DNA of 64,000 nt from assembly GCA_951406725.2 (NCBI GenBank), contig OX597815.1:190340001-190404000 (forward strand). Direction: 5' to 3'. A program made the position numbers and the translations under genes. This document shows positions 39,723-41,292 of this stretch, in pieces (the first letter of the stretch is position 1; every line of letters starts with the position of its first letter). The stretch comes from Octopus vulgaris (lineage: Eukaryota). Under the pieces are notes generated by a model that worked only from the letters and a program-made list of their open reading frames with translations, did not search any database and had not been told where the DNA came from.

Positions 39723-39840
39723 AGATTTCTTTTAGAGAGTTTTCAGGAAAGGGTGTAATTACAGTTCTATATTTAAAAGATTAGGAATTTAGTACATTAT
39801 TTACATTTGACGGATATTTGTCCTCATCTTGTTTGTTGTT

Positions 39841-39887
39841 AACACAATATTTCAGCTGATATACCCTCCAGCCTTCATCAGATGTCT
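39841..39887 (-). ncRNA. Minimal hammerhead motif
   Basis: GACAT-CTGATGA-A-GGCTG..CAGCT-GAAA-TA-TT-GTGTT. Confidence 0.65.
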
Positions 39888-40158
39888 TGGGGAAATTTCG
39901 AACATGGGTTCTCATTCCTAACGTATTTTTCGATGTTATTATCATTAGTGTTATTATTCAGGTCACTACCTGGAATCTAACTCGGAGTCTTGGAGTTAGT
40001 AGCCCGCACTCTTAACCACTACACCATATGGCGTAGTGGTTAAGAGCACCAACATTTCGAGTTCGATTCCAGGCAGTGACCTGAATATAAATAATTCTAA
40101 TAATGATAACATCAAAAAATACCTTAGGAATGAGAACCCAGGTTCGAAATTTTCCCAA

Positions 40159-40204
40159 GACACCTGAAGAAGGCTGGAGGGTATATTAGCCGAAACGTTG
40201 TGTT
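40159..40204 (+). ncRNA. Minimal hammerhead motif
   Basis: GACAC-CTGAAGA-A-GGCTG..TAGCC-GAAA-CG-TT-GTGTT. Confidence 0.75.
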
Positions 40205-41292
40205 AACAACAAACAAGATGAGGACAAATATCCGTCATAATGTAAATAATGTGCTTGAAATTTAAATCAAAGAGTAAAAAAGGTGTGCAGAATATGGACA
40301 CAATGCTGCCTTAAAGCCCATGGAGGTTACTGGTTACTGTTGTTATTGTTTCGCCCCTTTTCAACTGTGATCGAGATTAGAGCAATGGTATAGCAAGGGC
40401 TCTCATCGCTACCCATAAAAACCCTGGGATGGAGGAGGTTAGAAGACAATTTTGAGCGCCCCCATCTTATTTAACAATTATGATGGTTTCTTATTTAAGC
40501 ACAAGGCTTTGCAAACGTTTGAGAACAATGAGTGGGGTCGATATCATGTACCCGGATACGGCACAGGCATTTAATATTATCGATCCTGAAAGGGTGAAAA
40601 ATAAAGTTGATTTCAATAGGATCTGAACTCAGATATGCTGGGCTCATAAAGGGCCGGGAAAATACCTTAATGCATTTTTTTCGATTCTGCCAACTCGCCG
40701 CTTTTCCACTTTAATTGGCAATCATGATAAGAAGCAGTTTGCCCCGCCTCACAGCTCCACCTTCTGCGTCATGACCCTTGACACGCTTCTGGATTAAACT
40801 TAAGATAATCGTCGTTCTAGACGTGACCGTCTTATCAGTTTGAAACCTGGTACTATATTGTGCGATGGTTGAATGTGATACGAGGGAGAGCTAGCCAGTA
40901 TTTTGACCAGGTCGAGCGACCACATTGAAGTTATCTGTTATTGATTAAGCAGACCTATGAAGGAAAAGGCTTTCTAGCCGTGACCATTCCGTCATTTCCT
41001 GTCGTGAGCTATCTAGGCAGATATTTCTCTACAGAAAGCTCCTTACTTTCTTTCCTTTTCTTTTTCTTTTATTCGTTTCAGTCAGTAGACTGCGCCCATG
41101 CTGGGGCACCACTCTGAAGAACTTTTAGTTAAATGAACCCCAAAACTTTTTGAAGCCTGCTACTTATTCTATCAGTATGTTTTACTGAACCGCTAAGTTG
41201 CAGGGACGTAAACACAGCAACAAAGGTTGTCAAGCAGTGACAGAGAACAAATACCTACATTAAGACACGGACACACACACACACACTCACAC

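Follow-up and report, generated by a model that had tools for sequence, protein, structure and literature searches.

The insertion analyzed here is a decayed head-to-head copy of the 3′-end unit of a Penelope-like element (PLE), and it was probably copied from a short RNA polymerase III (Pol III) transcript by the reverse transcriptase (RT) and endonuclease of the element itself. Its two arms meet inside a tRNA-derived head and are identical in kind to the 3′ end of a PLE, the family to which it belongs has a peak of 5′ ends at that head, and the family carries the insertion marks of PLEs. The window is a 64,000-nt stretch of Octopus vulgaris contig OX597815.1, and coordinates without a contig name are positions within it (Table 1). 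Model positions are numbered from the first base of the tRNA-like head (+1), with 0 and negative numbers lying upstream, and genome-wide searches covered 2.8 Gb in 227 contigs.

Table 1. Features of the head-to-head insertion and of the sibling copy in the window.
Feature	Position	Strand	Support
Whole head-to-head insertion, PLE-type, asymmetric ends, ~494 bp	39761..40254	no strand	
Left arm, model +4 to +261	39761..40030	-	219/234 identical to family majority
PLE 'tail', 33 nt, left arm only	39761..39793	-	
Left minimal type I hammerhead motif, decayed; helix III tetramer changed, still palindromic	39841..39886	-	motif
Left AAT-rich linker	39932..39959	-	
Left B box, C-to-A change	39972..39981	-	
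Left A box, tRNA-Arg(ACG)-derived head	40016..40026	-	
Junction CCATATGG, inverted-repeat centre	40024..40031	no strand	
Right arm, model +4 to +228, without tail	40025..40254	+	203/212 identical to family majority
Right A box	40029..40039	+	
Right B box, intact	40061..40070	+	
Right AAT-rich linker	40083..40113	+	
Acquired T4 run, predicted Pol III stop upstream of right hammerhead	40150..40153	+	family majority T3
Right minimal type I hammerhead motif, core intact, position 7 = A	40159..40204	+	motif
Sibling copy: ORF end (about 32361-32545, one internal stop), then head, linker, hammerhead, 3′ end	32125..32545	-	
Truncated sibling arm in inverted orientation, model 133 to about 230	32546..32645	+	

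A preliminary description of this DNA had reported a 463-bp palindrome without ORF sequence, centered in the first bases of a tRNA-like head, whose arms run through the head, an AAT-rich linker and a hammerhead to a common tail base. The palindrome is real, with 207 of 229 aligned bases identical between the arms, and it is centered where it had been placed: the palindromic CATATG within CCATATGG corresponds to head positions +4 to +9, and both arms start at +4. We likewise found ORF sequence to be absent from both arms. The length needs correction to ~494 bp (39761-40254), because the left arm runs 33 nt further, to 39761, and the order of head, AAT linker and hammerhead stands, but the common end does not, since the left arm reaches model position 261 with its 33-nt tail and the right arm ends at 228 (about 40252-40254). 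The right arm has also lost 13 nt after 40046, between the A and B boxes. No clear TSD was found flanking the insertion (score 5). The 24-nt junction pattern has exact matches at at least 21 loci genome-wide. The arms differ at site 145 and share 0 private variants over 165 sites, and this particular copy is uninformative as to whether its arms had one template.

The insertion is predicted to fold at -314.5 kcal/mol, compared with -105 ± 6 kcal/mol for 100 shuffles (z = -36), and read-through of the locus would give a hairpin of ~230 bp. Such a hairpin would be very stable if transcribed, and both the right B box and the core of the right hammerhead are intact, which could be taken to mean that the palindrome has been kept as a functional element, either a Pol III promoter acting in both directions or a gene for a hairpin RNA. 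We consider this highly improbable. The palindrome is one of those junction loci (at least 21) among thousands of copies, its promoter boxes are damaged and it has gained a T4 run. Moreover, each arm is 4-6% off the family, its changes are not matched by changes in its partner arm, and since the arms have drifted separately their pairing has not been maintained. The divergent Pol III transcripts proposed previously are also unlikely to arise from this copy, because promoter or transcription features are damaged in both arms: the left B box carries a C-to-A change, and the right arm combines the 13-nt loss with a T4 run before the hammerhead. The insertion is an ordinary decayed copy of an abundant repeat.

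The head was found by alignment to tRNA-Arg(ACG) genes and the hammerhead by motif. When the window was searched with Rfam, neither was detected, and ARAGORN did not detect the tRNA-like head. Aligned without gaps, the head agrees with the genome's own tRNA-Arg(ACG) genes at 45 of 73 positions, and its local score against them is 68 vs. a maximum of 50 in 2000 shuffles. In having a tRNA-derived head with A and B boxes, the unit is like a tRNA-derived SINE. The motif of a minimal type I hammerhead, with conserved core, helices I and II and a palindromic minimal helix III, is present in both arms; the architecture is used here in the sense of the accessible text of PMC4209133. Elsewhere in the genome (G000:C2:211890299-211907142), about 20 tRNA-Arg(ACG)-like matches are clustered, with a spacing of about 206 bp between some of them.

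Judging from its sequence, the 230-260-nt unit is the 3′ UTR, or pseudo-LTR (pLTR), of an autonomous, RT-bearing PLE, because loci that retain the end of an ORF, and a near-full-length parent, carry it as their 3′ end. Searching with the ORF end of the sibling copy gave 43 scored matches. The start of the 3′ UTR is kept at 29 of 29 other ORF-end loci, most of which run on into the head, AAT run, hammerhead and 3′ end. The near-full-length parent (L128; G000:C1:7950164-7954187, minus strand) measures 2566 bp from tail to tail and consists, in order, of a truncated pLTR piece, a tail, a broken ORF, the head, the hammerhead and a second tail. Its RT domain matches Pfam RVT_1 (E = 5.8e-8), and 18 homologues were found at 55-69% identity, 12 of them with PF00078. 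A Pfam search of its C-terminal piece gave no GIY-YIG match at E ≤ 0.1; a GIY-YIG-like motif recognized by eye makes the C terminus a candidate endonuclease, and a linker motif would place the parent with the Penelope/Poseidon type. In L128 and two further loci, L116 and L141, the ORF start follows immediately on the tail, and truncated pLTR pieces lie upstream, beginning at model positions 203, 132, and 97, respectively. A pLTR of the hammerhead type in partial tandem upstream of the ORF, as in PLEs, is found in all three.

Several observations were made alongside the parent. L116 and L306, near G000:C1:5257793, are internally deleted, passing from the pLTR into 120 nt of ORF start and then jumping back into the pLTR. 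In contigs from four sequencing runs the parent ORF is represented in all 30 of its bins, which shows presence only, and those contigs display long skips similar to the deletion in L116 and L306. A phage search gave no match. Two loci, L129 and L130, have ~1.9 kb of common flank at 96% identity that encodes non-LTR-retrotransposon-like peptides, and their PLE copy sits inside a duplicated segment. Within the window, the sibling near 32.1 kb is not ORF-less, as it contains 213 nt of upstream element with the ORF end included. Beside it lies a separate imperfect inverted repeat (31815-32015) with weak matches to miRNA families, which is possibly the remnant of a small DNA transposon. AT, AAT, and CTT microsatellites are abundant in the window, as are copies of other dispersed repeats that resemble octopus SINEs, e.g., 22014-60347 (family D20) and 873-58380 (D15 and D19).

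An inverted, truncated partner and a tail of 30-40 bp at one end are marks of PLEs according to the accessible text of PMC8557442, and this family has both. Among 98 tail-anchored copies from the first 100 listed places, 52 have an inverted partner. In 120 inverted pairs, the tail is on one arm in 100, on neither in 17 and on both in 3; before two duplicates were removed, one-sided tails numbered 101 in 122 pairs vs. 60 expected. TSD-like repeats of at least 8 bases, mostly 10-13, accompany 65 of 101 one-tail pairs, compared with 16 of 1032 mismatched controls. The inverted partners, the one-sided tails (100/120) and these repeats bear out the earlier proposal of a PLE-type insertion. Mobilization by a LINE, with the insertion structure of LINEs, is not what was found for this unit, which has a PLE 3′ end, inverted pairs and a one-sided tail. 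Agreement between the arms of a pair was seen for site 64 in 43 of 47 pairs and for site 145 in 73 of 82, and paired arms share 47 private variants vs. 15 in random pairs. Because the arms have subfamily state and private variants in common, it appears that they were mostly copied from one template. A simple symmetric fold-back for every dimer was rejected, the arms often having very different 5′ ends.

The abundance of the family changes abruptly at the head. Genome-wide, exact matches numbered 10112 for the tail, 6722 for the sequence after the AAT run and 4655 for the head, vs. 862 just upstream of the head and 705 about 150 nt upstream, bearing in mind that such counts vary with the divergence of each pattern and that the head pattern is degenerate at three sites. 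We therefore located 5′ ends in tail-anchored and head-anchored samples, which come from the first 55 Mb of one contig, favor young copies and include a small number of duplicated loci as well as insertions represented by both of their arms. Among the 98 tail-anchored copies, 39 begin in -25..+19, 20 begin in the AAT run, 8 extend over 100 nt upstream and the other 31 start elsewhere. The end rate is 0.033 per nt in -18..+19 (37/47), compared with rates of 0.0025 for the body, 0.0031 within the head and 0.0018 upstream of the head (4 events, one of them being the edge of the model). Of 82 head-anchored copies, 16 continue into the ORF, in agreement with the 862/4655 exact matches, and 65 of the 66 that do not continue stop in -6..+4; the match to the native upstream base drops to background at -7. 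Ends are spread over about 10-25 nt rather than falling on one base. A sharp peak at the start of the tRNA had been proposed as the mark of a SINE, with randomly distributed 5′ ends as the contrary outcome; the ends are not random, and the peak is there. ORF-less copies exceed ORF-bearing ones about four to five times (66 vs. 16; 4655 vs. 862). In these respects the unit is like a SINE: short, non-coding, dispersed and of high copy number (4655 head and 10112 tail matches, with 66 of 82 head-anchored copies lacking ORF), and with a discrete 5′ boundary at the head.

The 5′ ends have another peak in the AAT run (20/76, 0.020 per nt; model positions 75-88, loci L061-L150), and sequence alone can thus make such a peak. 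Some of the ends in the AAT run may be due to insertion into, or slippage at, AAT microsatellites, and others may be unresolved long expansions. Two further sources of 5′ ends were considered and set aside. An RNase P-type cut at +1 as the main source is at odds with the 38 of 66 non-ORF copies that match native bases upstream of 0, a figure inflated by chance matches and fold-back. Hammerhead cleavage would place ends near its predicted cut after 176, where no excess was seen (3/98 ends in 174-182, 0.0034 per nt).

A different account of the peak at the head, one without any Pol III transcript, is that short copies are 5′ truncations of a long Pol II PLE RNA, with an imperfect hairpin at the boundary (-13..+10) that makes the RT stop, fold back or switch template. 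A structure-driven stop is conceivable because the strongest 30-nt hairpin of the 619-nt model straddles the boundary (as RNA, -10.8 vs. -9.4 and -8.4 kcal/mol for the next) and its perfect stem ends at -6, at the observed wall of 5′ ends. A short fold-back extension is seen in 9 of 66 non-ORF copies, the long copies do not differ in sequence from the short ones, and the AAT run shows that a peak can form within the element. However, cDNA stopped at -6 would fold at only -2.6 kcal/mol, and at -3 at -0.7, while the full hairpin requires copying to -13 and none of the 66 copies ends in -7..-20. The native spacer is kept in only 1 of 66 non-ORF copies, and at two other hairpins of almost equal strength the end rate is ten times lower. 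Truncation at a hairpin would also leave unexplained both the lack of T4 runs and the retention of the A and B boxes. On balance, we regard this account as unlikely.

The preliminary description had viewed the short form as a candidate Penelope-mobilized SINE, and the comparison of short and long copies speaks against a separate SINE family. Over positions +4 to +261, no site distinguishes the 52 ORF-bearing copies from the 143 head-starting ones at p < 0.01, so a diagnostic site is lacking. Two linked haplotypes at 64/145/214, G-T-A and A-A-G, occur in both classes (20 and 7 of 39 ORF-bearing copies; 79 and 12 of 132 head-starting copies). The unit thus does not form a lineage apart from its partner element, as a SINE would, and the short form is best regarded as a product of the pLTR of the element itself, or as having evolved in concert with the parent. 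The lower divergence of head-starting copies (3.8 vs. 4.9% for ORF-bearing ones) is confounded by sampling and was not used.

It could nevertheless be that an independent SINE, composed of the tRNA head and a PLE 3′ end and with master genes of its own, came first and was later captured as the 3′ UTR of a PLE via a template switch. The excess of head-starting over ORF-bearing copies (about four to five times; 66 vs. 16 and 4655 vs. 862) would be expected of such a history, and the native bases directly upstream of the head form an imperfect inverted copy of its first bases, like the relic of a fold-back junction. Yet there is no diagnostic position, and the two linked haplotypes (64/145/214) have similar frequencies in both classes; any independent evolution as a SINE must accordingly have been short or has been erased. 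In addition, the 5′ end of the ORF follows directly on the tail, and an ORF free of T4 suggests long co-adaptation with the promoter. An origin by capture, which seems to us improbable, is in any case compatible with Pol III transcription and PLE insertion as the best explanation of the copies.

Runs of four or more T are the usual stop signal for Pol III. The sense strand of L128 (2566 bp) has 24 T3 runs and 32 runs of A≥4, but no run of T≥4, and its Phe codons are TTC 13 times and TTT 3 times. Other copies (75 segments, 35.9 kb, thin over the 5′ third) contain 8 T4 vs. 110 T3 runs, and no T4 run is common between copies. Base shuffling of L128 gives a mean of 5.4 T4 runs with P(0) = 0.003, and synonymous choice by base composition gives P = 0.002. 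A synonymous shuffle with the element's own codon pool yields P(0 T4) = 0.10, and is weak because that pool is itself poor in TTT (3 vs. 13 TTC). A control PLE from the same genome with similar T content has 9 runs of T≥4 in 2343 bp (Fisher p = 0.007); it represents a young, unrelated family with intact ORFs of 781 aa and many near-identical copies (L264, L269, L288-L293). Taking one representative each of six families of the genome, there are 27 runs in 6893 bp, for a Poisson P(0) of 4e-5 for L128. Of five other GIY-YIG families in which a frame could be read, one likewise has no T4, over only 555 and 357 bp. Relatives from metagenomes are few and distant, and the five that were measured have T4 runs, no A/B-box match and a higher T content. 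One distant metagenome PLE (L311:2387-2420; 30% identity) has a hammerhead-like motif much like that of the octopus family, and no A/B-box match.

From the A and B boxes we infer that the tRNA-derived head can direct Pol III transcription, and its use is likely because most copies begin at the tRNA-derived start and the coding part has no T4 runs. In the scheme that we favor, the boxes would start Pol III at about -6 to -1, upstream of the tRNA +1, and the RNA would run through the AAT run, the hammerhead and the tail. The PLE enzyme would then cut the target with a stagger of about 10-13 nt. Two outward-facing copies would be made, mostly from one template, one ending at ~261 (the tail) and the other at ~228-235, and their 5′ ends would be joined via a short self-complementary sequence, which may have been CATATG in the copy at 39761-40254.

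The absence of T4, seen in one family and recognized post hoc, would fit Pol III transcription that begins in the upstream pLTR and crosses the ORF. Since the element has no T4 terminator, the promoter in the upstream tandem pLTR could read through the whole ORF. It is conceivable, although we put this forward tentatively and with somewhat more doubt than belief, that the autonomous PLE is transcribed from end to end by Pol III, with the downstream pLTR yielding a built-in SINE. The tRNA-Arg promoter of the upstream pLTR would read the 2.3-kb RT/endonuclease ORF purged of T4, and that of the downstream pLTR would yield the short form, at about five to one over the parent. The uncapped Pol III RNA would need to be translated, perhaps after hammerhead cleavage.

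PLEs with a C-terminal endonuclease and minimal hammerheads in their pLTRs are already known, as far as the accessible text of PMC4209133 and PMC8557442 goes, and in Schistosoma hammerhead pairs on opposite strands lie 100-700 bp apart (PMC4209133, accessible text). The octopus family is like these hammerhead PLEs in its RT ORF, minimal type I hammerhead in the pLTR, inverted 5′-truncated partner and tail of 30-40 bp at one end. Unlike them, it has at the start of its pLTR a tRNA-derived head, equipped with A and B boxes, at which most copies begin, and an ORF free of T4. The one dissected promoter, that of Drosophila Penelope, is TATA-less, LINE-like and internal (PMC2377424, accessible text).

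In promoter and ribozyme there is a parallel with Sm-alpha and Sj-alpha of Schistosoma, short repeats that combine an apparent Pol III promoter with a hammerhead (PMC6765202). These are often in tandem, their cleaved monomers lose the promoter, and the accessible text names no partner enzyme (PMC6765202), whereas the octopus copies are dispersed or head-to-head, keep both head and hammerhead, and have an identified coding parent. Similarly, the TRIMp3 elements Cassandra, Helenus, and Ajax have a small-RNA-derived Pol III promoter in the terminal repeat of a retroelement; by the accessible text they are non-autonomous LTR elements (PMC10886601), in contrast to the octopus case, in which the head lies in a PLE pLTR within a protein-coding element. 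Animal non-LTR retrozymes (PMC7229834; bioRxiv 10.64898/2026.07.22.740005) and non-autonomous Chlamys elements such as MRC1 (PMC8557442) are, in the accessible text of these sources, also non-coding, have a relationship to PLE ends and are presumed to be mobilized by PLEs. Retrozymes are head-to-tail tandems by definition, and the accessible descriptions do not include a tRNA-derived head. At the locus studied here, hammerhead units in head-to-tail tandem were not found, and the sampled copies are mostly head-to-head or single.

The octopus OK retroposon is reportedly a tRNA-Arg-related repeat with an AAT run that is transcribed by Pol III in vitro. The short unit may belong to the OK family, which is not known to be linked to PLEs or hammerheads. 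If the two are the same, the repeat was already known, and the PLE parentage and the T4-free ORF alone would be new. The OK retroposon (Ohshima and Okada, 1994) is cited in the accessible text of PMC3531059, PMC4758252, and PMC10886601. An octopus repeat annotation of 2026 lists SINE and Penelope families, with no link between them in its accessible text, and its supplements may bear on novelty (PMC13282606). Our literature search, which covered sources other than subscription papers, Repbase entries and supplements, found no PLE-mobilized element with a tRNA head and no Pol III-transcribed PLE. SINEs have been described as dependent on LINEs for their movement, and the transcription of protein-coding retrotransposons has been ascribed to Pol II or Pol I. 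The octopus family appears to join a tRNA-type promoter to the Penelope machinery inside one element. If its ORF is a Pol III transcript, it would be a natural case of protein made from such RNA, and would show one route by which a SINE may be born inside its partner. Finally, the insertions of this family, which number in the thousands and show one-sided tails, TSDs and arms copied from one template, offer a large natural dataset on the mechanism of PLE insertion.
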